33,517 bases of DNA, from the NCBI GenBank assembly GCA_900617105.1, contig UYFQ01000173.1, positions 62,001-95,517 of the forward strand, read 5' to 3'. How positions within the stretch are numbered: the stretch's first letter is position 1; the number at the start of each line of letters is the position of its first letter. Position numbers and translations under genes: made by a program. This document shows positions 1,804 to 33,400 of this stretch, one piece after another. Source of the stretch: Hydrurus foetidus (lineage: Eukaryota). The notes under the pieces are model-generated. The model was not told the origin of the DNA. It did not search any database and was given only the letters and a program-made list of their open reading frames with translations.

Positions 1804-2249
1804 CAGGGCGGCGGAGTGTTGTCTAAGATAATCACGTACCCCCTCCCCCCTCTCGTCAAACCAGAAAACTTTTTACAATACACGAATTTTACGGAAAGTA
1901 GATGAAATCCGTAGATTAAAACCGGATTCACCGACTATAAATACGGAAACAGTCTGACGAAAACAGATTTCGTTATTTTATATTCCAAATTATTTTACCG
2001 ATTTATGGTGTCACGGATTTTTTGAGTCACGGATTTTTTGGTTTACCGATTTTTCGATTTTCCGTTTCACCGAAAAGTTTTTCGAGGTCGTTTTTACCGA
2101 TTTACTTCACGGAAATTGAATAAAAACCGTAATTTAGAGAGCTTTTAAGTTTCGCGAAAACGAAAAAGTTTCGTGAAAATCCCCCCCCCCCTCCCCCTAT
2201 CGGGTTTTGACCATGACGTGATTATTTTAGACAATACTCCGCCGCCCAG
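1804..2249. mobile_element. Non-autonomous hAT-like element (MITE), 446 bp, 34-bp TIRs, 8-bp TSD
   Basis: 1804-1837 (CAGGGCGGCGGAGTGTTGTCTAAGATAATCACGT) matches the reverse complement of 2216-2249 at 31/34. Flanks are TGGGTCCG (1796-1803) and, after removing the Copia insertion, TGGGCCCG (8300-8307), a 7/8 match. The interior has many short TACCGATTT/CACGGATTT/ACGGAAA motifs like transposase-binding subterminal repeats. Confidence 0.75.
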
Positions 2250-2528
2250 TGTTGGAATTCTGGGCGAATTACACGGAATTTCTTCCGAGTTCCCAAACGA
2301 TCCCTGCACTTCCGACTGCTAGCAACGCTCGCTCAAAAGAGAAGAAGACGTTCTATTCGGTAAGTTGGATTAAACGACAGTGACATGCTGTCGATTACAT
2401 CTAGCTAGCATAACATGAGTGCGAGGGTTGCGGTCAATGTTATCGCTGAATGTACGTACACCCGTGCATGAAAACAATCATACATCACACAGGGTACAAG
2501 ATCCTAGTCTAATCCGGATATCCCAACA
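2250..2528 (-). repeat. 3' LTR (279 bp)
   Basis: Direct repeat of 8015-8294. The only difference I could see is A4 versus A5 after GCATG. Confidence 0.96.
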
Positions 2529-2536
2529 CACCCCCA
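2529..2536 (-). promoter_or_regulatory. Short polypurine tract (TGGGGGTG) abutting the 3' LTR
   Basis: G-run on the minus strand immediately upstream of the 3' LTR, the expected plus-strand primer position. Confidence 0.6.
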
Positions 2537-3039: not shown

Positions 3040-6000
3040 TTATACATTGAGCACTTGGTCGCGTAGCTCTTGGAATAGCTTCCCCTGCAGTGGCTTGGTC
3101 AGCAAATCTGCAATCATTTCTTTAGTACTCTTGTAGGTTACAATAATATGGTCTGATTTAATTCGGTCATGCAGGAAGAAAAACTTGATGTCTATGTGTC
3201 TAGTTCTTTCACTGTTGGACCTACCGTTCTTAACTAACTGAATTGTGGATAGGTTATCTTGGTAAATTAAAGCTGGACCTACCTCATACTCTTGATGGAT
3301 AAGGAAATTCCTAGTCCATAAAACCTGATTACCTGCTTCAGTCATAGCTACTAGTTCTGCCTCTGTGCTAGACGTAGTATTTAATTTCTGAGTGGAACTC
3401 TTACCATATATTGCTCCCTTACCTAGTGTTATAATACAGCCAGTGTGACTCTTCTTATCTGCATGTACAGCGTATGATGCATCTATATAGGCTATAACCT
3501 TAACCGGAGTATCTACCTCTAGGGTCAGCGGCGTAGCTCTGGTCTCTCTGATATACCGTATAGTATGCGCTAACTTATTCCAGTCGTCGGTTCTAGGTTC
3601 TAAGACTCTTTTAGTTAGATATGCTATACATGTCAGTATGTCTGGTCTGGTTCTCTTACTTAAATATAACAACTTAGCTGTTAGTGAGTGGAATCTCTCA
3701 CGTTCTTTATCTTTCAATAAAGGACTGTTAAGATCGATCTTGAATAGATTATCGTCGGCAGGTGTTCTAGACACCCCCACAATCTCTATGCAATCGTCTA
3801 ACAAGTCTTTTATGAAACCTTCCATGGATATGACAACTCTGCCTAACTGCTCAAAGTTAAAAGTCATACCTATATAATTCAACACTCTGCCTCTACTCTT
3901 AGTCAGGCCTGGGTATAGGTTTTCTATCTCTGAAATTATACTATCTATACGCTTCTCATCCCTACTGCTGATCATCATATCATCAACATGGATAACTAAA
4001 GTAGTCTGAGTGGAATCTAGCTCAGTCCTATTGAATACACATATGTCTGATGGATTTACCTTATAGCCTAACTGTGTTAAGTCTGATGATATTTTATCGT
4101 ACCATAACTTAGCTGACTCTACACATCCATATAATGCTTTCTTAAGCTTAACTACTACTGTTCCTTTCTCATTTACATACTTCTGATAGGACTTGTCAAT
4201 GCTAACTAATATGTTAGTCAAATATTTATTCAGTCTCATCAGCACTGCATGGTCACCGTCTAGTGGCATATCACTGTTGAGGAATGCACCAGGAAAATCG
4301 ATCGTAGCGACCGCTCGATTTTCACTAGCAGCAATTGCAGCAACAATAAATACGCTAGTGGTGCTAACAGTTGGTGATGAACCGTTATCATATATATTTC
4401 TATCTTGTAAGTGACCTCCTGCTACAAGTCTAGATTTTAGCTTATCAAATTTACCATCTGCTGTATACTTATCTTTCAAGAACATACTGCTGGTTATGAT
4501 ACTTTTCCTCTGATTGTAACTAAGACTGTTGAGGTGAACTGCCTCCCACACATTCTTATCACACATCTGTTGTAACTCTTTTTTAATGGAATCTACGGCT
4601 ATCTCGCCTAATTTCTGTACTCCTTCTGTTACGGTCATGTTCATCATGTACTTACACATGACTGAATCTTTGTAGCTAGGTATACTTAAACCTACTAATC
4701 TCTTGTTCCATCTGCCTGGCTGATGGTTTCTAGCACTACGTCTGGGTTGTTTATCTAGAATTTCCTCTGACTTGCTATTTTCTGTGGTGGGGGTATCTAC
4801 CTCATCATCACTGTCTACACCAAATATATCATTCATTAATGCATCGGGGTCAGTTGGTGTATCGTCATACACTACATCCACTCCTTCATTAACGTATATA
4901 TCATTTGGTATGTATTCTGTTAATTGTTCAAACTCTGATTCGTAAGCTACGTCAGAATTGACATCGTATGAGTCAAAATTATTTGCTATCTCATGATGCA
5001 CAAATTCGTCTGCTGTGGGGTAACTATACGGTGTTATCATGTCAGGTGTCTGCAACTCAAATTCATCGTTGGAGTAATCATTTCCGTCGTCTTCGAGGAT
5101 TTGATTACTCTGTTCGAAAATAGGTTGCTTGACATTCACTGACATATTTAATTTCCTCTCAGATGCTAACTTATCGAGGTAACTGATCACATCATCTGTC
5201 ATGGGTAGGCTAGTGGCCTTTGTCCTCTTGACTACTTTTAAGTTACTTAACAGCAGATAATACCATGACCCTTCTAAGTTGCCTGCACTAACTAATGCTA
5301 TCGCTGCCTGTGATCTGGGCTTAGTCGAGTTGTCCACGGAGTCGGTATGTACTTGTACGTAATCACCGAAACCGTGTTTCAACTCCTTATCTACGTTAAT
5401 CTTTCTACCGTATAATTTCTCTCTGGGGCTGACGTAAGCTACACTGTTTCTAGTTGGTACTAAATTTAATCTGTTAACAACATATCTAAGTAACCAACTT
5501 TCTAGTAGCTCACTCAGTGAAAAAGGTACCGTGTTGATGATGGCACGAACACGTTCCTTGATCACTCTGATCTTCCTCTCAACTACAGCTACTGCTTCTC
5601 CTGCTCCAGTACTGTCTAATATAATACCTAGTGCGGCTAGCTTACTCTCAAAACTTATAGTGTTAACTGCCGACTCTCCGTCTATTCTTATCATAGTTAT
5701 CTTAAATCCATACTTAGTGATGTGATGTATGTTGCTCTCTAAGTTCATCCATAAGGAAGACTTGTTTTTACGTGAGAGTTTACATATCATCACATATTCT
5801 AAGGGATTTGTAACAGTGACTAGATAGGGTATCGAGTTGACAAACATCAGATCTATGTACATAACCTGGTTCAGGAACTGCCTATCTACAACTGGCATCT
5901 CTTCCTCTAACTCAGTTTTGTGACTAGTTGTTTTCCCCTTAAGGGAACCCAAATCTGGTCCAAAAATATCTAATGCTCTGACTACATCTTGTGCTGTTAT

Positions 6001-6822
6001 GTCGCTCTTATCTAATTTCCCCTGACCTATTAATTTAATTAACTGTCCTGGGCTGGCGTAACCTAACTTTCTCTGATACTCTCTAGCTAACTCTGCTGAC
6101 TTAACTTGTCTAGCTGTATACAGTTTCTTCTTATCCTTAACTGTCATGACCATGATCGATTTATCGAACGATACATTCTTGTAACTGACATTTCTGTCTA
6201 AGTCGCATAGATATATGTTCGTAGACTGATCATGGACAAATCTATATACAGGTCCTAACTTAATCATCCTAACTTTGTAACAATCCTGGTCACTGTCATA
6301 GCTAACTGACTCGCTCGAGCTGACTATGTTACCGAAGGATAATATATTTGCTATACAATTTCTATCGTAGTAAACTGTTCCGAAGTCCGTCTCGCCACAC
6401 TCCGTGATTATCAAGGGTTCCCCCTGAGGGTTCACTCCATTAATAATCATCGGGGTAGCGGACGGCGTGATACTATAAAATAAATCTCCACTACAAAATA
6501 CTGACTCTGCTGCACATGTATCTAACAACACTTGTCTATCTGTAAATGTGGAACTGTGTGTATATACATTCGCACTAAAAATCACAGGGTCACCCCCACA
6601 ATTTTTACTGTTCAGTGGACAAAAATTCTCCAAGCTGCATGCTTTATCTAACAAAGGCACAAACGCAGGGTAACCGGTCGACGTTGCAAATACGTCATGC
6701 AGTCCGGTTTCCCCACACGGAACATTTACATCCTTAGCTAGTGAATCAGGTAAAAAAACATATAAGGGACTTACTTTTCCGAGGAAGTGTGACGCGCAGG
6801 TGCGTTCTTCCTCGGCGGCTTC
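3040..6822 (-). CDS. pol: Pol polyprotein (aspartic protease, integrase, reverse transcriptase, RNase H); frame open from 6822, ORF-track GTG start at 6660
   Basis: PR: VLLDTCA. IN D-D-E: YIDLMF / RIDGE / VVERKIR. RT: TIDFPGAFLN, KALYGCVESAKLWY, IHVDDMMI. Copia-type RNase H: YIDASYA, STEAELVA, YQDNLS, RTRHIDIKFFF, MIADLLTKPL. No internal stops. Confidence 0.96.
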   Translation of the reverse strand, partial: EAAEEERTCASHFLGKVSPLYVFLPDSLAKDVNVPCGETGLHDVFATSTGYPAFVPLLDKACSLENFCPLNSKNCGGDPVIFSANVYTHSSTFTDRQVLLDTCAAESVFCSGDLFYSITPSATPMIINGVNPQGEPLIITECGETDFGTVYYDRNCIANILSFGNIVSSSESVSYDSDQDCYKVRMIKLGPVYRFVHDQSTNIYLCDLDRNVSYKNVSFDKSIMVMTVKDKKKLYTARQVKSAELAREYQRKLGYASPGQLIKLIGQGKLDKSDITAQDVVRALDIFGPDLGSLKGKTTSHKTELEEEMPVVDRQFLNQVMYIDLMFVNSIPYLVTVTNPLEYVMICKLSRKNKSSLWMNLESNIHHITKYGFKITMIRIDGESAVNTISFESKLAALGIILDSTGAGEAVAVVERKIRVIKERVRAIINTVPFSLSELLESWLLRYVVNRLNLVPTRNSVAYVSPREKLYGRKINVDKELKHGFGDYVQVHTDSVDNSTKPRSQAAIALVSAGNLEGSWYYLLLSNLKVVKRTKATSLPMTDDVISYLDKLASERKLNMSVNVKQPIFEQSNQILEDDGNDYSNDEFELQTPDMITPYSYPTADEFVHHEIANNFDSYDVNSDVAYESEFEQLTEYIPNDIYVNEGVDVVYDDTPTDPDALMNDIFGVDSDDEVDTPTTENSKSEEILDKQPRRSARNHQPGRWNKRLVGLSIPSYKDSVMCKYMMNMTVTEGVQKLGEIAVDSIKKELQQMCDKNVWEAVHLNSLSYNQRKSIITSSMFLKDKYTADGKFDKLKSRLVAGGHLQDRNIYDNGSSPTVSTTSVFIVAAIAASENRAVATIDFPGAFLNSDMPLDGDHAVLMRLNKYLTNILVSIDKSYQKYVNEKGTVVVKLKKALYGCVESAKLWYDKISSDLTQLGYKVNPSDICVFNRTELDSTQTTLVIHVDDMMISSRDEKRIDSIISEIENLYPGLTKSRGRVLNYIGMTFNFEQLGRVVISMEGFIKDLLDDCIEIVGVSRTPADDNLFKIDLNSPLLKDKERERFHSLTAKLLYLSKRTRPDILTCIAYLTKRVLEPRTDDWNKLAHTIRYIRETRATPLTLEVDTPVKVIAYIDASYAVHADKKSHTGCIITLGKGAIYGKSSTQKLNTTSSTEAELVAMTEAGNQVLWTRNFLIHQEYEVGPALIYQDNLSTIQLVKNGRSNSERTRHIDIKFFFLHDRIKSDHIIVTYKSTKEMIADLLTKPLQGKLFQELRDQVLNV

Positions 6823-7958
6823 TTACACTCGTACGCGTAGTGCCCCTCCTCCCCGCAGTTGTTGCAAGCTCCGTAACGGGTACCGTACTCCTGTACGGCA
6901 CCAACTCTCTCTCTATGCGGGGTGGCCTCCCTATCCCTATAGGGAGTGCCTGCCCTCGCCGTACTCTCGCTGCCGGGGGTATCGTACCCTCCCTTCTCAG
7001 CTCCGCTGTAGCTGCTTCCTCCGCGGCCTCTGCCGCCTCTGCCTCCGGAACCCGCTCTCCCACCCCGACTGGCCGCGAAAACGTTTCGCCTTTCCGAGTT
7101 CGGGGGAGCTCCTCCGTGGACGGGCCTTCCCATAAGGAAGTTGGCCGCGTCCTGGTTGGCCTCAGCCATGGTCTGCGGCCATGACCGAACCTTATTTTTA
7201 AACGTATTAATATAATCTGAATAGTTTGAATTCAATCCAGTTATAAATAATACAGAATAGAACTCATCTGTGTGTTCTGGGGCTTCTTCGTCCGCCATCC
7301 TGTAGGCTTCGTTCTTCACGAACAGCAGCGTCCTACACCTACTATAATAAGCAGCTAGGTCCTCGTGTGCAGTCATTTTATTTGTATAGAAATTTCTAAC
7401 TGCAGTTATAGTGTTAAATGTTTCTCCATACCTTTTGTTGCTCATGTGTGTTGCAATCACACATGTCAACAGACCTAGTGGATCACACTCCTCCATAGCT
7501 CTCTTCCCAGACGGCATCTCGTTGACCCTGGTCTGTGAAGCCTCTGACATTTGACCTAATAATACACCATACAATTTCGCGCAGTCTTTTGTAAGTAAAT
7601 CATCAGCAGCATCATATTTCTTACGTGCAGTTTTCCATCGTTCTATCGCGACAAGACCGGCTCCCTCCGGCGGGTCTTCAGGTTCCATCTGCTCCACGTA
7701 ATCGTAGAGGATGCCGTCTATACCTATAATCTCTTTACTAGAAGATTCATAAGTACTGTACATATATACTCTAAAACATTCGAGCCATTTCAACACGGCT
7801 TCCGGATCTGCCGCTTGGCCTCGTGGCAGATCCAGGTAAGCACCTACCTCGGGCTTCCTACCTTTTACTATGGGTTTATGGGGCTCGCCTTGCCCCCTAC
7901 CATATCGACCCCTGCCCCCGCCACGGGACTGGAATCTCCCATCGCCTCGTCCTCTCAT
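6771..7958 (-). CDS. gag: Gag protein, 395 aa, with RGG-rich ends and a CCHC zinc knuckle
   Basis: ATG 57 nt after the 5' LTR; CNNCGEEGHYAYEC matches CX2CX4HX4C; capsid-like core (FITGLNSNYSDY); lies upstream of pol. Confidence 0.92.
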   Translation of the reverse strand: MRGRGDGRFQSRGGGRGRYGRGQGEPHKPIVKGRKPEVGAYLDLPRGQAADPEAVLKWLECFRVYMYSTYESSSKEIIGIDGILYDYVEQMEPEDPPEGAGLVAIERWKTARKKYDAADDLLTKDCAKLYGVLLGQMSEASQTRVNEMPSGKRAMEECDPLGLLTCVIATHMSNKRYGETFNTITAVRNFYTNKMTAHEDLAAYYSRCRTLLFVKNEAYRMADEEAPEHTDEFYSVLFITGLNSNYSDYINTFKNKVRSWPQTMAEANQDAANFLMGRPVHGGAPPNSERRNVFAASRGGRAGSGGRGGRGRGGSSYSGAEKGGYDTPGSESTARAGTPYRDREATPHRERVGAVQEYGTRYGACNNCGEEGHYAYECKKPPRKNAPARHTSSEK

Positions 7959-8003
7959 CCTTGCAAGATTTTTGCAACTTTCTAGCTAATCTATCTAAGG
8001 ATG

Positions 8004-8014
8004 ACTGTCGTTTA
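8004..8014 (-). promoter_or_regulatory. Non-canonical primer-binding site TAAACGACAGT, complementary to LTR-internal 8146-8136 (candidate self-priming PBS)
   Basis: Directly abuts the 5' LTR, lacks the TGG of tRNA 3'-end PBSs, and is an 11/11 complement of ACTGTCGTTTA in the LTR on the same RNA strand. Confidence 0.7.
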
Positions 8015-8294
8015 TGTTGGAATTCTGGGCGAATTACACGGAATTTCTTCCGAGTTCCCAAACGATCCCTGCACTTCCGACTGCTAGCAACGCTCGCTCA
8101 AAAGAGAAGAAGACGTTCTATTCGGTAAGTTGGATTAAACGACAGTGACATGCTGTCGATTACATCTAGCTAGCATAACATGAGTGCGAGGGTTGCGGTC
8201 AATGTTATCGCTGAATGTACGTACACCCGTGCATGAAAAACAATCATACATCACACAGGGTACAAGATCCTAGTCTAATCCGGATATCCCAACA
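8015..8294 (-). repeat. 5' LTR (280 bp)
   Basis: Direct repeat of 2250-2528 with TG...CA ends, followed by TSD CCCAG. Confidence 0.96.
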
Positions 8295-8485
8295 CCCAGT
8301 GGGCCCGCAGACTGCCGAGCCCAACCCCCACTGCTTGAAATTTTGGATGACGTTCTATCCCACAAAGCCCATAGCCACAGCTAAATCGAATCGCTCATCT
8401 CTCGTCTCATACTTGCTATGTGTGTATAGTGCATAGTGCATAGTGCAGTACAAAGTGATTACGTCTGTCACCAATTCATTTCGAC

Positions 8486-20400: not shown

Positions 20401-21737
20401 CCAGTATGGTGCCGTCAGACATGCCAACTGTGATACCTACGTCAACGCCCACGCTATCGCCGATGTCACGACCCAGCAGCTGTCCCAGTATGGTGCCGTC
20501 AGACATACCAACTATGATAAATACAAGTCATTTAAGCTGCTTTCCAACCGCTTTGTCTTCGAGCTTATCTGCATTACCAACATCATCATCGTCACCATCA
20601 GGTAAAATGACAACAAAAACTCTTTCAGATTCTATTCATCTCATTATCTTTATAACAATTGATATTTTTCCCGAATGATTTCGCCACTGTAGGTACCATC
20701 GTCCCATCAAATTTCATTCCTGGGAGAGTGACAACGATATCAGCTTTTCAGGTGAGTGAGTGAGTGAGTGAGTGGGTGAGTGGGCGAGTGGCAAGACTCT
20801 TTCGAGAATTGCATAGCTCTACTACAGATTTGTAATTTCTTGTTTTCTCTTCTTTTGTCCTCTCTTCTTTTCTTCCCTCACCTCCTCTTCTCTGCTTTCT
20901 TCTCTTCGTCATTTCTCTTATTGTATCACATCTTTTCTCCTCTTTTTCTCTTTATCCTACCTCCTCTTCTTTCTCTCATTTCATCTCCTATTCGTTTACC
21001 TCCCCTTCTTCCTTCTGCTTTGTGGCGACTCTACAGGTGCTGTCCGGAGTAACACAACCCGAAGCATCAACTGCATCATTCTCGACAGCAGTGATAGAAA
21101 GCGTGTCAGAGGTGCTTGGCTTGCCGCCTGGAAATGTCACAGGAGATGTGGTCATCGGCAACAGGCGATCTCTCCTTGCCACCGTGAGTATGCTCTACAC
21201 TGTCCGCATAGTCAGCGACATGTCTAGTTCCAGCATCATCAGTAAGCTGCAGCAGGCTATGTCAAGCGGCGCCTTTGTCGCTTTGTTGCGCAAGAAATCT
21301 GGCCTGCCTATCGACAGCGCCACATCTGTGTCGATCACTGACGCAACTCCCACGAGCGCACCTGTTTCATCTCTCGAGATCCCTACCAAAACACGAGGTA
21401 CGATTGCAGGCCACATTATCTGTAGCTGTATCTGTATCTTTATCTCTGAATCTAGGAAACTAAGTGCTGCATTTCAATGTCCACAGACTCGTCTAATCAA
21501 TCGAGCGTCAACATTGGATCAATCGCTGGCGGCACTATCGGGGCGTTTCTGCTCATCCTGATTTGCTTTAGTGCCTATTACTGCATGCACTGGAAACAGA
21601 ATAAATTCTCACCGGTTCAATCAAAACTGGGACTGTTGTACGAGGAAGACATCATCGACATGATTCCAGAGACCGTAGGCAGGAACCCAGGGTTGGTGGA
21701 TTCGCACGATGTCATGGTGACGTCGTATGAGATATAA
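8486..21737 (+). CDS. Giant type-I membrane sedolisin (peptidase S53, TPP1/kumamolisin-like) with mucin-like stalk, SEA-like domain and TM helix; exons 8486-9787, 9876-20601, 20693-20751, 21037-21397, 21487-21737 (~4230 aa if array frameshifts are artefacts)
   Basis: Hydrophobic N-terminus and pro-domain (VSDPQSVNYGQHMTRE). Catalytic motifs: SEINLDIQY (Glu/Asp), ATGDNG (oxyanion Asp), PSSSPYVVAVGGT, GGGFS, GRGFPDVS, GTSASCP (Ser), GWDPASGLGSIN (Ca site). All four introns are GT-AG and phase-compatible (9788-9875, 20602-20692, 20752-21036, 21398-21486). TM segment IAGGTIGAFLLILICFSAYYC. Confidence 0.88.
10587..20519 (+). repeat. Coding minisatellite of roughly 110-115 near-identical 84-bp and 96-bp units ([ASTP]TSTPTLSPTSRPSSCPSMVPSDMPTMIP)
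   Basis: Direct reading. Units differ mainly by an optional 12-bp segment and GCG/ACG; 96-bp units dominate the 5' part and 84-bp units the 3' part. Copy number is estimated from length. Confidence 0.97.
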
Positions 21738-24411
21738 ACACACCATGATTAAATTAAGTTTTAATTTCATGATGTTCAATACAGAAGAGACAAGGAAAAA
21801 CTTGGAAGTCGTACTTCACTATGATCCCTAGATACTAAAATGATAATAAGTAATACAAACCATAAATTGAATTCACGGCATGAGAAAGACATTGCTTTTC
21901 AGCACTCTCACTTTTACACGAGGTTTTAATTTTTGTCCATACATTTTTGCCCTTCATTATATTGCCCGTAATTTCCTCCCCAAAATTTTCTAGAACGTAC
22001 AGTAAATCCTGTAGAGCAGTGACTGAATTTCAGCCATTTTTGCGATACATCTCCTATCTTGTTTCATCTGTAAGTGACTCGTATATTAAACATTCAAGCA
22101 CACCACTCGCTATTGATGACGCTATTCTGTAAGTGATGAAATAAAATATGATCGATGTAAAATATGACGTGTACGCGTCTTCTATTCTCTGTGTATGATG
22201 GTTCCCTCTCGTTCCCCACCAAGTAATTGATTGAGCTCCCCCCTCTGCCTTACGCAGCTAACACAACAACTTTATAAATGTCTTGAACTCCCACTCAATA
22301 CAATGAAATACATTTTGTCGTGCGTGCTTAATTGAATTACCCCTGGCTTCCCCTCGTTACGAAATAGATTTTCATCATCGTGTGCAGTAATGTAAATATG
22401 ATTCCCAACTCTCCTGTTACGACACGACATTTTTTTCTTGGTGAGGAACTTCCCTAACTCGCTGCTTAATTTCGCAGAAAAAACTTGCCAACGAAATCGA
22501 CTCGACGAGCGAAAATTTTCATCACAACTGCCAAGGATTTGATTTAAGACATTCTGTCAACTCGCAGCGTACCTTTCTATTTACCTCTCGTGAGGCGATT
22601 CAGGGGACACGATCGTTTTGACATTTCACAAGAAAGATCGCGAAGTGAACAAACGGTTTTATTTAAATTAATTTCCGTCTGTATAAAATCTGTAATTCGC
22701 AAGTACAAGTGTTTAATGGCATAGACAACTAGAGCATTATAGGGTTTATAAATCGAGTGTAACAGGGGACACGCGATCAATCGTTGGGAGCCAACATGTG
22801 GGCAAGGCACCCACTTGCTGGGAATCAGAAATGACTAAAATCATTTCTACCCTCAAAAAAGTAGGACGTCACAATGAGGTGCATTGGAAATAACGAAAAT
22901 TATAAAGATAAATTTCTAGTGAAGATCTATGACTGTGAACTATCTAGGGTAAAATCACGGCAAAGTAGACATCACGTTAAACATCGAACATAGAAGAGTA
23001 ATCATATTAAAAAAATGTAAATTTGCCCTAATTGAAGACAATTCATACGATAGCAACCGTGTAAGTGTAAGTGTTCTATCTCGGAGTATGAGAGTCAGTT
23101 CTACTTATTCTATCTAAATGTCTAGGATTTATTGAGTAGTAAAAGTGAGGAGAGAGAAAGAAAAGAAGGGAGAAGAAGAGATAGTATGTCGCAGGAAAGG
23201 ATCGAGAAGGAAGAAAAAAGGGGAGGAATTGTTTAGGTTGGTGAGAGACCTGCAAAGCAGTAAGGTCTTCTTGTTTACAAAAAACAAGAGGGGCTCTTGG
23301 ATTAAATCATGATCTGTCCGTTATTCATCACAGTAACGAGATCTGGAATGAGATCAGCTTCGTTAGTATGATCGTGTCTGGACTGCACTGGAGAGAACTT
23401 ACTCTGTTTCCAGTGAACACAGTACAAGGCAATAATGCATATAAAGACGACAAGCAATGCCCCGATAGTGCCGCCAGCGATTGATCCAATGTTGACGCTC
23501 GATTGATTAGACGAATCTGTCGACATTGAAATGCAGCACTTAGTTTCCTAGATTCAGAGATAAAGATACAGATACAGCTACAGCTACAGATAATGTGGCC
23601 TGTGATCGTACCTCGTGTTTTGGTAGGGATCTCGAGAGATGAAACAGGTGCGCTCGTGGGAGTTGCGTCAGTGATCGACACAGATGTGGCGCTGTCGATA
23701 GGCAGGCCAGATTTCTTGCGCAGCAAAGCGACAAAGGCGCCGCTTGACATAGCCTGCTGCAGCTTACTGATGATGCTGGAACTAGACATGTCGCTGACTA
23801 TGCGGACAGTGTAGAGCATACTCACGGTGGCAAGGAGAGATCGCCTGTTGCCGATGACCACATCTCCTGTGACATTTCCAGGCGGCAAGCCAAGCACCTC
23901 TGACACGCTTTCTATCACTGCTGTCGAGAATGATGCAGTTGATGCTTCGGGTTGCGTTACTCCGGACAGCACCTGTAGAGTCGCCACAAAGCAGAAGGAA
24001 GAAGGGGAGGTAAACGAATAGGAGATGAAATGAGAGAAAGAAGAGGAGGTAGGATAAAGAGAAAAAGAGGAGAAAAGATGTGATACAATAAGAGAAATGA
24101 CGAAGAGAAGAAAGCAGAGAAGAGGAGGTGAGGGAAGAAAAGAAGAGAGGACAAAAGAAGAGAAAACAAGAAATTACAAATCTGTAGTAGAGCTATGCAA
24201 TTCTCGAAAGAGTCTTGCCACTCGCCCACTCACCCACTCACCTGAAAAGCTGATATCGTTGTCACTCTCCCAGGAATGAAATTTGATGGGACGATGGTAC
24301 CTACAGTAGCGAAATCATTAAGGGACTATGATATAAGGACAACGAGATAGACAAAATCAAATCTGATGGTGTTTTTGTTGTCATTTTACCTGATGGTGAC
24401 GATGATGGTAC
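20580..24411. repeat. Large inverted duplication: arms ~20580-21620 and ~23385-24411, unique spacer ~1.75 kb, with homology continuing into the shared repeat units
   Basis: ORFs 21022+/23987-, 20780+/24229- and 21477+/23526- are mirror translations. Confidence 0.93.
20752..20789 (+). repeat. (GAGT)n microsatellite at the intron-3 donor
   Basis: GTGAGTGAGTGAGTGAGTGAGTGGGTGAGTGGGCGAGT; 16 nt longer than the equivalent in the paralog (24241-24220). Confidence 0.85.
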
Positions 24412-27400
24412 ACGGGTTGGACAGCTGCTGGGTTCAGAAGTAGGTATCACAGTTGGCATCTGTGACGGCACCATACTGGGGCAGCTGCTGGGTCGTGACG
24501 TCGGCGATAGCGTGGGCGTTGACGTAGGTATCATAGTTGGCATGTCTGACGGCACCATACTGGGACAGCTGCTGGGTCGTGACGTCGGCGATAGCGTGGG
24601 CGATAGCGTGGGCGTTGAGGTAGGTATCATAGTTGGCATGTCTGACGGCACCATACTGGGACAGCTGCTGGGTCGTGACGTCGGCGATAGCGTGGGCGTT
24701 GACGTAGGTATCATAGTTGGCATGTCTGACGGCACCATACTGGGACAGCTGCTGGGTCGTGACGTCGGCGATAGCGTGGGCGTTGACGTAGGTATCATAG
24801 TTGGCATGTCTGACGGCACCATACTGGGACAGCTGCTGGGTCGTGACGTCGGCGATAGCGTGGGCGATAGCGTGGGCGTTGACGTAGGTATCATAGTTGG
24901 CATGTCTGACGGCACCATACTGGGACAGCTGCTGGGTCGTGACGTCGGCGATAGCGTGGGCGTTGACGTAGGTATCATAGTTGGCATGTCTGACGGCGCC
25001 ATACTGGGACAGCTGCTGGGTCGTGACGTCGACGATAGCGTGGGCGTCGACGTAGGTATCATGGTAGGCATCTGTGACGGCGCCATACTAGGTTCACACG
25101 TAGGTATCATGGTAGGCATCTGTGACGGCGCCATACTAGGTTCACACGTAGGTATCATGGTAGGCATCTGTGACGGCGCCATACTAGGTTCACACGTAGG
25201 TATCATGGTAGGCATCTGTGACGGCGCCATACTAGGTTCACACGTAGGTATCATGGTAGGCATCTGTGACGGCGCCATACTAGGTTCACACGTAGGTATC
25301 ATGGTAGGCATCTGTGACGGCGCCATACTAGGTTCACACGTAGGTATCATGGTAGGCATCTGTGACGGCGCCATACTAGGTTCACACGTAGGTATCATGG
25401 TAGGCATCTGTGACGGCGCCATACTAGGTTCACACGTAGGTATCATGGTAGGCATCTGTGACGGCGCCATACTAGGTTCACACGTAGGTATCATGGTAGG
25501 CATCTGTGACGGCGCCATACTAGGTTCACACGTAGGTATCATGGTAGGCATCTGTGACGGCGCCATACTAGGTTCACACGTAGGTATCATGGTAGGCATC
25601 TGTGACGGCGCCATACTAGGTTCACACGTAGGTATCATGGTAGGCATCTGTGACGGCGCCATACTAGGTTCACACGTAGGTATCATGGTAGGCATCTGTG
25701 ACGGCGCCATACTAGGTTCACACGTAGGTATCATGGTAGGCATCTGTGACGGCGCCATACTAGGTTCACACGTAGGTATCATGGTAGGCATCTGTGACGG
25801 CGCCATACTAGGTTCACACGTAGGTATCATGGTAGGCATCTGTGACGGCGCCATACTAGGTTCACACGTAGGTATCATGGTAGGCATCTGTGACGGCGCC
25901 ATACTAGGTTCACACGTAGGTATCATGGTAGGCATCTGTGACGGCGCCATACTAGGTTCACACGTAGGTATCATGGTAGGCATCTGTGACGGCGCCATAC
26001 TAGGTTCACACGTAGGTATCATGGTAGGCATCTGTGACGGCGCCATACTAGGTTCACACGTAGGTATCATGGTAGGCATCTGTGACGGCGCCATACTAGG
26101 TTCACACGTAGGTATCATGGTAGGCATCTGTGACGGCGCCATACTAGGTTCACACGTAGGTATCATGGTAGGCATCTGTGACGGCGCCATACTAGGTTCA
26201 CACGTAGGTATCATGGTAGGCATCTGTGACGGCGCCATACTAGGTTCACACGTAGGTATCATGGTAGGCATCTGTGACGGCGCCATACTAGGTTCACACG
26301 TAGGTATCATGGTAGGCATCTGTGACGGCGCCATACTAGGTTCACACGTAGGTATCATGGTAGGCATCTGTGACGGCGCCATACTAGGTTCACACGTAGG
26401 TATCATGGTAGGCATCTGTGACGGCGCCATACTGGGACTGCTGACTGGTCGTGACGAAGGTGTCGCCATCGGTGGTACCGACGGTGTCGCTGACGGCGCC
26501 ATACTGGGACTGCTGACTGGTCGTGACGAAGGTATCGCCATCGGTGGTACCGACGGTGTCGCTGACGGCGCCATACTGGGACTGCTGACTGGTCGTGACG
26601 AAGGTGTCGCCATCGGTGGTACCGACGGTGTCGCTGACGGCGCCATACTGGGACTGCTGACTGGTCGTGACGAAGGCGTCGCCATCGGTGGTACCGACGG
26701 TGTCGCTGACGGCGCCATACTGGGACTGCTGACTGGTCGTGACGAAGGTATCGCCATCGGTGGTACCGACGGTGTCGCTGACGGCGCCATACTGGGACTG
26801 CTGACTGGTCGTGACGAAGGTATCGCCATCGGTGGTACCGACGGTGTCGCTGACGGCGCCATACTGGGACTGCTGACTGGTCGTGACGAAGGTATCGCCA
26901 TCGGTGGTACCGACGGTGTCGCTGACGGCGCCATACTGGGACAGCTGCTGGGTCGTGACGTCGGCGATAGCGTGGGCGTTGACGTAGGCGTTGACGCAGG
27001 TATCATAGTTGGCATGTCTGACGGCACCATACTGGGACAGCTGCTGGGTCGTGACGTCGGCGATAGCGTGGGCGTTGACGCAGGCGTTGACGCAGGTATC
27101 ATAGTTGGCATGTCTGACGGCACCATACTGGGACAGCTGCTGGGTCGTGACGTCGGCGATAGCGTGGGCGTTGACGCAGGCGTTGACGCAGGTATCATAG
27201 TTGGCATGTCTGACGGCACCATACTGGGACAGCTGCTGGGTCGTGACGTCGGCGATAGCGTGGGCGTTGACGCAGGCGTTGACGCAGGTATCATAGTTGG
27301 CATGTCTGACGGCACCATACTGGGACAGCTGCTGGGTCGTGACGTCGGCGATAGCGTGGGCGTTGACGCAGGCGTTGACGCAGGTATCATAGTTGGCATG

Positions 27401-30400
27401 TCTGACGGCACCATACTGGGACAGCTGCTGGGTCGTGACGTCGGCGATAGCGTGGGCGTTGACGTAGGCGTTGACGCAGGTATCATAGTTGGCATGTCTG
27501 ACGGCACCATACTGGGACAGCTGCTGGGTCGTGACGTCGGCGATAGCGTGGGCGTTGACGTAGGTATCATAGTTGGCATGTCTGACGGCACCATACTGGG
27601 ACAGCTGCTGGGTCGTGACGTCGGCGATAGCGTGGGCGTTGACGTAGGCGTTGACGCAGGTATCATAGTTGGCATGTCTGACGGCACCATACTGGGACAG
27701 CTGCTGGGTCGTGACGTCGGCGATAGCGTGGGCGTTGACGTAGGCGTTGACGCAGGTATCATAGTTGGCATGTCTGACGGCACCATACTGGGACAGCTGC
27801 TGGGTCGTGACGTCGGCGATAGCGTGGGCGTTGACGTAGGCGTTGACGCAGGTATCATAGTTGGCATGTCTGACGGCACCATACTGGGACAGCTGCTGGG
27901 TCGTGACGTCGGCGATAGCGTGGGCGTCGACGTAGGTATCATGGTAGGCATCTGTGCCGGCGCCATACTAGGTTCACACGTAGGTATCATGGTAGGCATC
28001 TGTGATGGCGCCATACTAGGTTCACACGTAGGTATCATGGTAGGCATCTGTGACGGCGCCATACTAGGTTCACACGTAGGTATCATGGTAGGCATCTGTG
28101 ACGGCGCCATACTAGGTTCACACGTAGGTATCATGGTAGGCATCTGTGACGGCGCCATACTAGGTTCACACGTAGGTATCATGGTAGGCATCTGTGACGG
28201 CGCCATACTAGGTTCACACGTAGGTATCATGGTAGGCATCTGTGACGGCGCCATACTAGGTTCACACGTAGGTATCATGGTAGGCATCTGTGACGGCGCC
28301 ATACTAGGTTCACACGTAGGTATCATGGTAGGCATCTGTGACGGCGCCATACTAGGTTCACACGTAGGTATCATGGTAGGCATCTGTGACGGCGCCATAC
28401 TAGGTTCACACGTAGGTATCATGGTAGGCATCTGTGACGGCGCCATACCAGGTTCACACGTAGGTATCATGGTAGGCATCTGTGACGGCGCCATACTAGG
28501 TTCACACGTAGGTATCATGGTAGGCATCTGTGACGGCGCCATACTAGGTTCACACGTAGGTATCATGGTAGGCATCTGTGACGGCGCCATACTAGGTTCA
28601 CACGTAGGTATCATGGTAGGCATCTGTGACGGCGCCATACTAGGTTCACACGTAGGTATCATGGTAGGCATCTGTGACGGCGCCATACTAGGTTCACACG
28701 TAGGTATCATGGTAGGCATCTGTGACGGCGCCATACCAGGTTCACACGTAGGTATCATGGTAGGCATCTGTGACGGCGCCATACTAGGTTCACACGTAGG
28801 TATCATGGTAGGCATCTGTGACGGCGCCATACTAGGTTCACACGTAGGTATCATGGTAGGCATCTGTGACGGCGCCATACTAGGTTCACACGTAGGTATC
28901 ATGGTAGGCATCTGTGACGGCGCCATACTAGGTTCACACGTAGGTATCATGGTAGGCATCTGTGACGGCGCCATACCAGGTTCACACGTAGGTATCATGG
29001 TAGGCATCTGTGACGGCGCCATACTAGGTTCACACGTAGGTATCATGGTAGGCATCTGTGACGGCGCCATACTAGGTTCACACGTAGGTATCATGGTAGG
29101 CATCTGTGACGGCGCCATACCAGGTTCACACGTAGGTATCATGGTAGGCATCTGTGACGGCGCCATACTAGGTTCACACGTAGGTATCATGGTAGGCATC
29201 TGTGACGGCGCCATACTAGGTTCACACGTAGGTATCATGGTAGGCATCTGTGACGGCGCCATACTAGGTTCACACGTAGGTATCATGGTAGGCATCTGTG
29301 ACGGCGCCATACTAGGTTCACACGTAGGTATCATGGTAGGCATCTGTGACGGCGCCATACTAGGTTCACACGTAGGTATCATGGTAGGCATCTGTGACGG
29401 CGCCATACTAGGTTCACACGTAGGTATCATGGTAGGCATCTGTGACGGCGCCATACTAGGTTCACACGTAGGTATCATGGTAGGCATCTGTGACGGCGCC
29501 ATACTAGGTTCACACGTAGGTATCATGGTAGGCATCTGTGACGGCGCCATACTAGGTTCACACGTAGGTATCATGGTAGGCATCTGTGACGGCGCCATAC
29601 TAGGTTCACACGTAGGTATCATGGTAGGCATCTGTGACGGCGCCATACTAGGTTCACACGTAGGTATCATGGTAGGCATCTGTGACGGCGCCATACTAGG
29701 TTCACACGTAGGTATCATGGTAGGCATCTGTGACGGCGCCATACTAGGTTCACACGTAGGTATCATGGTAGGCATCTGTGACGGCGCCATACTAGGTTCA
29801 CACGTAGGTATCATGGTAGGCATCTCTGACGGCGCCATACTAGGTTCACACGTAGGTATCATGGTAGGCATCTGTGACGGCGCCATACTAGGTTCACACG
29901 TAGGTATCATGGTAGGCATCTGTGACGGCGCCATACTAGGTTCACACGTAGGTATCATGGTAGGCATCTGTGACGGCGCCATACTAGGTTCACACGTAGG
30001 TATCATGGTAGGCATCTGTGACGGCGCCATACTAGGTTCACACGTAGGTATCATGGTAGGCATCTGTGACGGCGCCATACTAGGTTCACACGTAGGTATC
30101 ATGGTAGGCATCTGTGACGGCGCCATACTAGGTTCACACGTAGGTATCATGGTAGGCATCTGTGACGGCGCCATACTAGGTTCACACGTAGGTATCATGG
30201 TAGGCATCTGTGACGGCGCCATACTAGGTTCACACGTAGGTATCATGGTAGGCATCTGTGACGGCGCCATACTAGGTTCACACGTAGGTATCATGGTAGG
30301 CATCTGTGACGGCGCCATACTAGGTTCACACGTAGGTATCATGGTAGGCATCTGTGACGGCGCCATACTAGGTTCACACGTAGGTATCATGGTAGGCATC

Positions 30401-33400
30401 TGTGACGGCGCCATACTAGGTTCACACGTAGGTATCATGGTAGGCATCTGTGACGGCGCCATACTAGGTTCACACGTAGGTATCATGGTAGGCATCTGTG
30501 ACGGCGCCATACTAGGTTCACACGTAGGTATCATGGTAGGCATCTGTGACGGCGCCATACTAGGTTCACACGTAGGTATCATGGTAGGCATCTGTGACGG
30601 CGCCATACTAGGTTCACACGTAGGTATCATGGTAGGCATCTGTGACGGCGCCATACTAGGTTCACACGTAGGTATCATGGTAGGCATCTGTGACGGCGCC
30701 ATACTAGGTTCACACGTAGGTATCATGGTAGGCATCTGTGACGGCGCCATACTAGGTTCACACGTAGGTATCATGGTAGGCATCTGTGACGGCGCCATAC
30801 TAGGTTCACACGTAGGTATCATGGTAGGCATCTGTGACGGCGCCATACTAGGTTCACACGTAGGTATCATGGTAGGCATCTGTGACGGCGCCATACTAGG
30901 TTCACACGTAGGTATCATGGTAGGCATCTGTGACGGCGCCATACTAGGTTCACACGTAGGTATCATGGTAGGCATGTGTGACGGCGCCATACTAGGTTCA
31001 CACGTAGGTATCATGGTAGGCATCTGTGACGGCGCCATACTAGGTTCACACGTAGGTATCATGGTAGGCATCTGTGACGGCGCCATACTAGGTTCACACG
31101 TAGGTATCATGGTAGGCATCTGTGACGGCGCCATACTAGGTTCACACGTAGGTATCATGGTTGGCATGTCTGACGGCGCCATACTAGGTTCACACGTAGG
31201 TATCATGGTAGGCATCTGTGACGGCGCCATACTAGGTTCACACGTAGGTATCATGGTAGGCATCTCTGACGGCGCCATACTAGGTTCACACGTAGGTATC
31301 ATGGTAGGCATCTGTGACGGCGCCATACTAGGTTCACACGCAGGTATCATGGTAGGCATGTCTGACGGCGCCATACTAGGTTCACACGTAGGTATCATGG
31401 TAGGCATCTGTGACGGCGCCATACTAGGTTCACACGTAGGTATCATGGTAGGCATCTGTGACGGCGCCATACTAGGTTCACACGTAGGTATCATGGTAGG
31501 CATCTGTGACGGCGCCATACTAGGTTCACACGTAGGTATCATGGTAGGCATCTGTGACGGCGCCATACCAGGTTCACACGTAGGTATCATGGTAGGCATC
31601 TCTGACGGCGCCATACTAGGGACACGTAGGTATCATGGTAGGCATCTGTGACGGCGCCATACAGGGTTGACGTAGGTATCATGGTTGGCATGTCTGACGG
31701 CGCCATACTGGGACAGCTGCTGGGTCGTGGTCGGCATCTCTGACGGCGCCATACTAGGTTCACACGCAGGTATCATGGTTGGCATCGTGACGGCGCCATA
31801 CCTGGTTGACACGCTAGGTATCATGGTCGGCATCTGTGACGGCGCCATACTGGTTCACACGCAGGTATCATGGTTGGCATCTCTGACGGCGCCATACTGG
31901 TTCACACGTAGGTATCATGGTAGGCATCTGTGACGGCGCCATACCAGGTTGACGCAGGTATCATGGTTGGCATGTCTGACGGCGCCATACCAGGTTCACA
32001 CGTTGGTATCGTGACGTACGTGCGAAGCCTAGTATGGCGCCATACTAGGTTGACGTAGGTATCATAGTTGGCATGTGTGACGGCGCCATACTGGGACACT
32101 GCTGGGTCATGGTCGGCATCTGTGACGGCGCCATACTAGGTTCACACGTAGGTATCATAGTAGGCATGTGTGACGGCGCCATACCAGGTTCACACGTAGG
32201 TATCATCGTAGGCATCGTGACGGCGCCATACTAGCGTTGACACGCAGGTATCATAGTTGGCATGTCTGACGGCACCATACTGGGACACGCTGGGTCATGG
32301 TCGGCATCTGTGACGGCGCCATACCAGGTTGACGCAGGTATCATGGTTGGCATGTCTGACGGCGCCATACTAGGTTCACACGCTAGGTATCATGGTCGGC
32401 ATCTGTGACGGCGCCATACCAGGTTGACGCAGGTATCATAGTTGGCATGTCTGACGGCGCCATACTGGGACACGTGGGTCGTGACGTCGGCGATCTGTGA
32501 CGGCGCCATACCAGGTTGACGTAGGTATCATAGTTGGCATGTCTGACGGCGCCATACTGGGACACGTAGGTATCATGGTCGGCATCGTGACGGCGCCATA
32601 CTAGGTTCACACGTAGGTATCAGGGTAGGCATCTGTGACGGCGCCATACCAGGTTCACACGTAGGTATCATGGTAGGCATCTGTGACGGCGCCATACTGG
32701 TTCACACGTAGGTATCATAGTAGGCATCTGTGACGGCGCCATACCAGGTTCACGTAGGTATCATGGTTGGCATCTGTGACGGCGCCATACCAGGTTCACA
32801 CGTAGGTATCATGGTAGGCATCTGTGACGGCGCCATACCAGGTTCACACGTAGGTATCATGGTAGGCATGTCTGACGGCGCCATACTAGGTTCACTGTAG
32901 GTATCATGGTAGGCATCTGTGACGGCGCCATACTAGGTTCACACGTAGGTATCATGGTTGGCATGTCTGACGGCGCCATACTAGGTTCACACGCAGGTAT
33001 CATGGTCGGCATGTGTGACGGCGCCATACCAGGTTCACACGTAGGTATCATGGTAGGCATCTGTGACGGCGCCATACTAGGTTCACATGCTAGGCATCAT
33101 GGTAGGCATGCTGTGACGGCGCCATACCAGCGTTCACACGTAGGTATCATGGTTGGCATGTCTGACGGCGCCATACTAGGTTCACACGTAGGTATCATGG
33201 TAGGCATCTGTGACGGCGCCATACTAGGTTCACACGTAGGTATCATAGTTGGCATGTGTGACGGCGCCATACTAGGTTCACACGTAGGTATCATGGTAGG
33301 CATCTGTGACGGCGCCATACTAGGTTCACACGTAGGTATCATGGTTGGCATGTGTGACGGCGCCATACTAGGTTCACACGTAGGTATCATGGTTGGCATC

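Follow-up and report, generated by a model that had tools for sequence, protein, structure and literature searches.

What primes reverse transcription in a long terminal repeat (LTR) retrotransposon whose 5' LTR is followed not by a tRNA-type primer-binding site (PBS), but by a sequence complementary to a stretch of the LTR itself? The question is raised by an element in 33,517 nt of Hydrurus foetidus DNA (contig UYFQ01000173.1 of assembly GCA_900617105.1, positions 62,001–95,517), the whole of which is hereafter called the window. The element is an intact Ty1/copia retrotransposon in which the 11-mer that follows the LTR complements a stretch inside it, and the sequence comparisons described here make it likely that its own RNA, by way of the 5' end, acts as the primer in place of a tRNA. 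The trait is probably common to a large clade of elements of aquatic, probably stramenopile, hosts, with perfect complements of 9–17 nt.

Structure and Coding Content of the Element

The window contains one LTR element, which lies on the minus strand (8294–2250) and is 6,045 nt long. Its two LTRs, of 280 nt (8294–8015) and 279 nt (2528–2250), differ solely by a 1-nt indel, and the copy looks young and intact. The hallmarks of Ty1/copia LTRs are present, namely TG...CA ends, a target-site duplication and a polypurine tract. The features of the element, all on the minus strand, are as follows.

8295..8299: target-site duplication, 5' side, CTGGG (window sequence)
8015..8294: 5' LTR, 280 nt, TGTTGG...CCAACA (window sequence)
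8136..8146: predicted self-primer ACTGTCGTTTA, with the predicted transcription start A8146 in a TCA context (sequence seen, role inferred from relatives)
8015..8135: part of the LTR between the self-primer arm and the LTR end; U5-end stem with p = 0.05 here, not clade-wide (sequence and stem test)
8004..8014: predicted primer-binding site TAAACGACAGT, abutting the LTR, complement of 8146–8136, no TGG (window sequence)
6771..7958: gag, 395 aa, with its ATG 56 nt past the LTR and a CCHC zinc knuckle (ORF and motif)
3040..6822: pol frame, 1260 aa from stop to stop, in the -1 frame and overlapping the end of gag (ORF)
Motifs within pol: protease D101; integrase D324, D381, E415; RT D947, D948; RNase H D1114, E1156, D1189, D1239
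2529..2535: polypurine-tract-like GGGGGTG, abutting the 3' LTR (window sequence; similar pre-LTR motif in relatives)
2250..2528: 3' LTR, 279 nt; the 11-mer recurs here, at 2381–2371 (window sequence)
2245..2249: target-site duplication, 3' side, CTGGG (window sequence)

The catalytic roles given to the pol residues, from D101 to D1239, are presumed. The only Pfam match in pol is RVT_2 (pol 758–1010, 76 bits). A structure model of pol 250–560, made with an alignment of 82 rows, has a pLDDT of 88, and its best matches are retroviral integrases (E = 1.5e-10). As this integrase fold lies ahead of RVT_2, the domain order is that of Ty1/copia, which bears out the assignment made in the initial annotation. 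The protease and RNase H were located by motif only, and a search of PDB sequences with the pol profile returned no match. In an alignment of the window pol with 59 homologues, the acidic residues checked in integrase, RT and RNase H are invariant (60/60 proteins). These include all four acidic residues of RNase H, for which cutting activity is predicted. The protease aspartate is kept in 58 of the 60 proteins, the other two having gaps at this position.

In the subclade to which the window element belongs, gag and pol occupy separate frames and are likely to be joined by a -1 ribosomal frameshift, as judged from sequence. Just ahead of the gag stop, the sister elements L001, L005 and L006 carry GGGAAAG or GGGAAAC, and the window carries GGAAAAG (6771–6785). 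Splicing at a GTAAGT that spans the gag stop was considered as another route to Gag-Pol, and was set aside because the sister elements carry the slippery heptamer. A single ORF is found in 27 of the 35 elements tested.

Several features adjoin the element. A 32-nt inverted repeat (1806–1837 and 2216–2247) lies just outside the 3' LTR, and broken ORFs at 2–1199, one piece of which was scanned with no Pfam match, presumably resemble a DDE transposase. The retrotransposon may have landed beside the end of a DNA transposon. On the other side, a tripeptidyl-peptidase-like gene (8459 to approximately 21700, plus strand), whose peptidase has matches among environmental proteins only, leads into Pro/Thr/Ser-rich tandem repeats that extend over approximately 10 kb. 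Opposite to it lies another repeat gene (23300–31650, minus strand), and an inverted 3' region is common to both, with arms at 20768–21445 and 23564–24241.

Complementarity Between the LTR and the Adjoining Site

On the minus strand, TAAACGACAGT (8014–8004) follows the 5' LTR with zero gap, and its exact complement, ACTGTCGTTTA, lies within that LTR at 8146–8136. Exactly 11 Watson–Crick pairs can be formed between them, with mismatches flanking the run on both sides, and the distance from 8136 to the LTR end is 121 nt. The 5' context of the arm is gtc[A]CTG, and the 11-mer has no occurrence in the window beyond those listed above. The initial annotation had described this arrangement, together with an initiator-like context at the first A of the complement and the lack of a TGG-type PBS after the LTR, and each of these was seen again here; because the 3' boundary of the LTR is fixed by the two LTRs and the CTGGG target-site duplication, it was set without any use of the complementarity. 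The chance expectation of 7e-5 that had been attached to the match holds for one fixed LTR end; with 24 candidate ends admitted, comparison with 300 dinucleotide shuffles gives p = 0.007.

In the mechanism proposed, transcription would start at A8146 and nucleotides 1–11 of the RNA would fold onto 8014–8004. The RNase H of the element itself would then cut after nucleotide 11, and the freed 3' end, placed exactly at the LTR boundary, would prime approximately 121 nt of strong-stop DNA. As the primer would in turn be copied in plus-strand synthesis, the two sites would stay complementary while drifting. When RNA is folded from 8146, the minimum-energy fold (-59.3 kcal/mol, z = -3.1) holds the primer helix with 10 of its 11 pairs closed. 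A search for tRNA genes within the window found none.

The 24 RNA runs matched to the window consist of assembled contigs, which cannot show a transcript start. Their variation is uninformative as to the pairing, with one of the 16 listed variable sites in 7960–8294 falling within the 22 paired bases where about one is expected; the base concerned is 8136, and the variant would form a G–U pair. Two of the contigs are of separate interest. One from run X19 (depth 4.7) joins 7835 to 7991 on the plus strand, antisense to the element. The part that it skips starts CAG/GTAAGC and ends GCTAAT in the window and GCTAAG in variants from runs X1 and X17, so that this is possibly a spliced antisense RNA across the primer site. 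In the other, from run X17 (window 7842–8287), a short spacer links 7842 to the start of a further LTR; this is a TRIM-like derivative with an internal deletion, in which the LTR and the primer site are retained.

Conservation of the Pairing Among Relatives

Relatives were sought with the alignment of the window pol and its 59 homologues, which gave 77 metagenome loci (out of the 80 best among 542 confirmed stretches) as well as 21 loci on contigs of metagenome-assembled genomes (MAGs), making 98; a search of viral contigs for relatives found none. The 21 MAG contigs (L078–L098) are assigned to bacteria or archaea and carry these eukaryotic retrotransposon genes, for which mis-binning is the most likely cause. 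A complete stretch from the end of pol to gag is present in 36 of the 98 loci, the other 62 being too short or lacking it, and the window brings the number to 37. L016 and L043, which have no gag ORF, were left out, leaving 35 elements to be tested; by eye, these two have complements of 12 and 10 nt, respectively. Most of the whole relatives are collapsed circles with one LTR, and the LTR ends come mostly from such single-LTR contigs. Every CA or CG up to 250 nt before gag was taken as a candidate LTR end, under a rule written after the sequences had been viewed, and the longest perfect upstream complement was scored against 300 shuffles given identical candidate ends.

A perfect complement of 9–17 nt starting from the inferred LTR end was found in 32 of the 35 elements, or 31 of the 34 relatives, and mostly in different letters. 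Covariation between post-LTR site and LTR-internal complement was a check proposed in the initial annotation. The test returned p <= 0.05 in 32/35 elements and p <= 0.01 in 28/35, values that overstate independence because the elements are related to one another. The median complement is 11 nt, compared with 6.6 nt in the shuffles, whilst reversed, complemented and direct controls have medians of 6–7 nt and reach at least 9 nt in 3, 5 and 3 of the 35 elements.

The position of the pairing can also be approached with no LTR end assumed, in which case the longest inverted repeat between the LTR start and gag starts no more than 2 nt from that inferred end in 28/35. A rule that relies on terminal repeats only gives at least 9 nt among the top-ranked ends in just 19/35, and is noisy, often picking sites inside gag. 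There is no independent LTR 3' end for L058, L031 and L040, and that of L052 is ambiguous. Among 14 loci without a located LTR start, mostly incomplete upstream, only three reach at least 9 nt, and in one of these (L050) the place is doubtful. The three failures among the 35 elements are L057, L046 and L053; in the latter two, inspection by eye shows a match broken by a single altered letter. L057 is the only tested relative with clean terminal repeats yet no complement to the post-LTR sequence, and it may be primed otherwise or be a dead copy.

It could be argued that the pairing is due to chance or to an assembly artefact, given that AT-rich stretches pair easily and that control matches of at least 9 nt do occur in 3–5 of the 35 elements. 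The arms in the window, however, are not AT-rich (4/11 G/C), and the arm is present in both LTRs. The shuffles, the comparisons between elements and the CA motif described below are all far beyond chance, and this explanation is refuted by the shuffle and control test on the 35 elements and by the low number of cross-matches, with a site matching the LTR of another element over at least 9 nt in 13 of 992 comparisons. Its likelihood is negligible.

The identity of the sites bears on a second explanation, in which the post-LTR site is bound by half of a host tRNA or by another small RNA, the complement in the LTR being no more than a decoy or a by-product. Priming by half-tRNAs is known in Copia, as in Osser and Bianca (PMC6317226) and FunCo1 (PMC5445492), and the sites in this clade do have a common YAAT start (T/C in 30, A in 28, A in 25 and T in 25 of 32). 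Against this, the 32 primer sites comprise 30 distinct 9-mers, each of which fits its own LTR and almost never that of another element, whereas the tRNA-primed lineages of plants mostly keep one dominant tRNA, according to the part of the survey available (PMC6317226). No TGG occurs 0–5 nt from the LTR end in any of the 35 elements. From these comparisons, a tRNA or other small RNA as primer is very unlikely. The YAAT start is nevertheless unexplained by self-priming alone, and a preference of the cut site or of integrase would be a guess.

The elements compared are diverse, with RT–RNase H identities of 33–71% among the 35 and 31 clusters at 60% identity. Paired changes are also seen between sisters in the well-supported subclade of the window element, with one between L003 and L067 and three between the window and L006. 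A search of viral contigs for tRNA-primed controls, using Met-PBS patterns, found Copia RT in 0 of 162 loci and no plant Copia; there is therefore no tRNA-primed control set, and the tree of the 35 elements has no outgroup.

Predicted Position of the RNA 5' End and Folding of the Leader

Across the clade, the A of a CA dinucleotide is the first paired base of the LTR arm in 16/32 elements (1.8 expected), and lies at the first paired base or the one before it in 23/32 (3.5 expected, p = 3.5e-16). TCA is found at the 5' edge of the arm in 17/32 (1.3 expected). The motif at this edge resembles the initiator consensus TCAKTY, as given in the part of that study available (PMC3601003), which would suit a transcription start. 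The LTR arm was found by complementarity alone, yet its edge falls on CA; among the indirect signs that this arm forms the RNA 5' end, none is better. A TATA box upstream of the predicted start was seen in 1/32.

The helix has a probability of at least 0.7 in 29/32 folds made from the predicted start, and in 15/32 when 80 nt of upstream sequence is added. The G+C content of the arms falls with their length (rho -0.43, p = 0.014), perhaps through compensation or chance extension. A crude test with 15-nt windows and no pseudoknot folding gave a leader duplex like that of Tf1 at p <= 0.05 in 1/32 (mean z -0.04). The same test gave a U5-end stem in 4/32 (mean z -0.48, Wilcoxon p = 0.07), with p = 0.05 in the window, so that any such stem across the clade would appear to be at most weak.

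The helix may be real and yet structural, acting in packaging, dimerisation or translation control, with some other primer in use. Priming by the helix is a prediction from sequence here, and the fungal GalEa elements, which are Copia without a PBS, carry at this position a hairpin whose role is unknown (PMC5445492). However, the helix has one arm that stops precisely at the LTR boundary, the point from which DNA synthesis has to proceed, and another that starts at the initiator-like CA. In GalEa, the hairpin is found downstream of the LTR, and in the available part of the source its authors found no LTR complement (PMC5445492). Moreover, runs of Watson–Crick pairs free of mismatches in 32/35 elements suggest templated copying. 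A purely structural role is therefore considered unlikely, and priming by the RNA 5' end is retained as the preferred reading.

Implications

A widespread protist clade with young and intact copies that primes itself in this way would show that escape from the tRNA primer has occurred repeatedly and that a Copia RNase H is able to cut an RNA–RNA duplex. The complementarity rule predicts the transcription start of each element from its sequence. LTR annotation that requires a tRNA PBS will miss or downgrade such elements.

Comparison With Known Systems

Self-priming in Copia is not new as an idea. In the part of Neumann et al. (2019) available (PMC6317226), it is predicted for 89% of 203 plant TAR elements, the criterion being that the 5' LTR holds a complementary stretch of 10 nt or more, and is cited for Houba and Osr-1. 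The novelty implied in the initial annotation was thus overstated. The TAR elements (Houba, Osr-1, Fourf) resemble the window element in being Ty1/copia with a 5-bp target duplication and predicted self-priming (PMC6317226), but they form a plant lineage with mostly a single ORF, whilst the window element is from an aquatic protist and has gag and pol in different frames. The window element and its relatives score 73–102 bits on RVT_2, with no matches to rve or to plant gag domains in Pfam. Plant Copia score far higher on RVT_2. These low scores, together with the lack of plant-type domains, suggest a lineage far from TAR and probably CoDi-like, and we infer an origin independent of TAR, for which the term 'convergent' is plausible.

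The CoDi-like elements (CoDi I and II of diatoms, in branch 1 with Ty1 and GalEa) are divergent Copia of aquatic protists, as is the window clade, and the RT motifs of the window element presumably resemble those of CoDi. The close homologues of pol include no named CoDi protein, all being environmental proteins, and the DNA is found in metagenomes labelled biofilm, sediment, air, freshwater and glacier and in one organism. That the host is a stramenopile is suggested by the types of gene present. The main texts on diatom CoDi do not contain 'primer binding' or 'tRNA' in one case (PMC2806351) and 'PBS' in the other (PMC2774666), although their supplements could bear on this. GalEa shares with the window element the lack of a tRNA PBS, but its inverted pair is wholly downstream of the LTR and conserved in sequence, according to the part of the report available (PMC5445492), whereas the window clade has its partner within the LTR, with letters that vary between families.

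The literature searched, which covered few subscription papers, yielded no account of a self-priming Copia from stramenopiles or other protists. Within that literature, what is new here is the protist clade, the variable length of the primer and the lack of any sign of the Tf1 leader duplex. The feature is probably functional and the mechanism is a known one, whilst the lineage has probably not yet been described in print. A further subclade (L082:62-5950, L052:153-6314, P0217 and P0220) has polyproteins of 1900–2050 aa with a SET domain ahead of RT, which is above the Pfam cut-off in P0217 and P0220 and just below it in L082 and L052. We know of no Copia element with a SET domain.

Experimental demonstration of self-priming is, to our knowledge, confined to fission yeast and its Ty3/gypsy elements. 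In Ty1/copia, self-priming has been predicted from sequence (PMC6317226). In Tf1, the RNA's initial 11 bases pair with a PBS next to the LTR, and the RNase H cut falls between bases 11 and 12 (PMC7175516); two flanking duplexes are also needed, giving a three-duplex 'pretzel' in the 5' UTR (PMC10085805), both statements being drawn from part of each source. The window element has the same 11-nt layout as Tf1 but belongs to another superfamily, with integrase before RT, whereas Tf1/sushi elements, including Tf1 and Tf2 of Schizosaccharomyces pombe, are Ty3/gypsy chromoviruses with the order RT, RNase H, integrase. The length of the perfect complement ranges between 9 and 17 nt in the window clade, unlike the 11 nt of Tf1, and the 'pretzel' leader duplex is not enriched in the crude test (1/32). 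The start and the cut are demonstrated for Tf1 and predicted for the window element. The Tf1-like priming put forward in the initial annotation is hence still a prediction, though one that gains from a pairing kept mostly in other letters and from the CA at its 5' edge. On balance, we lean towards the view that a large protist clade of Ty1/copia evolved self-priming independently, as a third origin after Tf1/sushi and plant TAR, using a simpler 5' end of 9–17 nt that would start at an initiator and be cut without a leader duplex.
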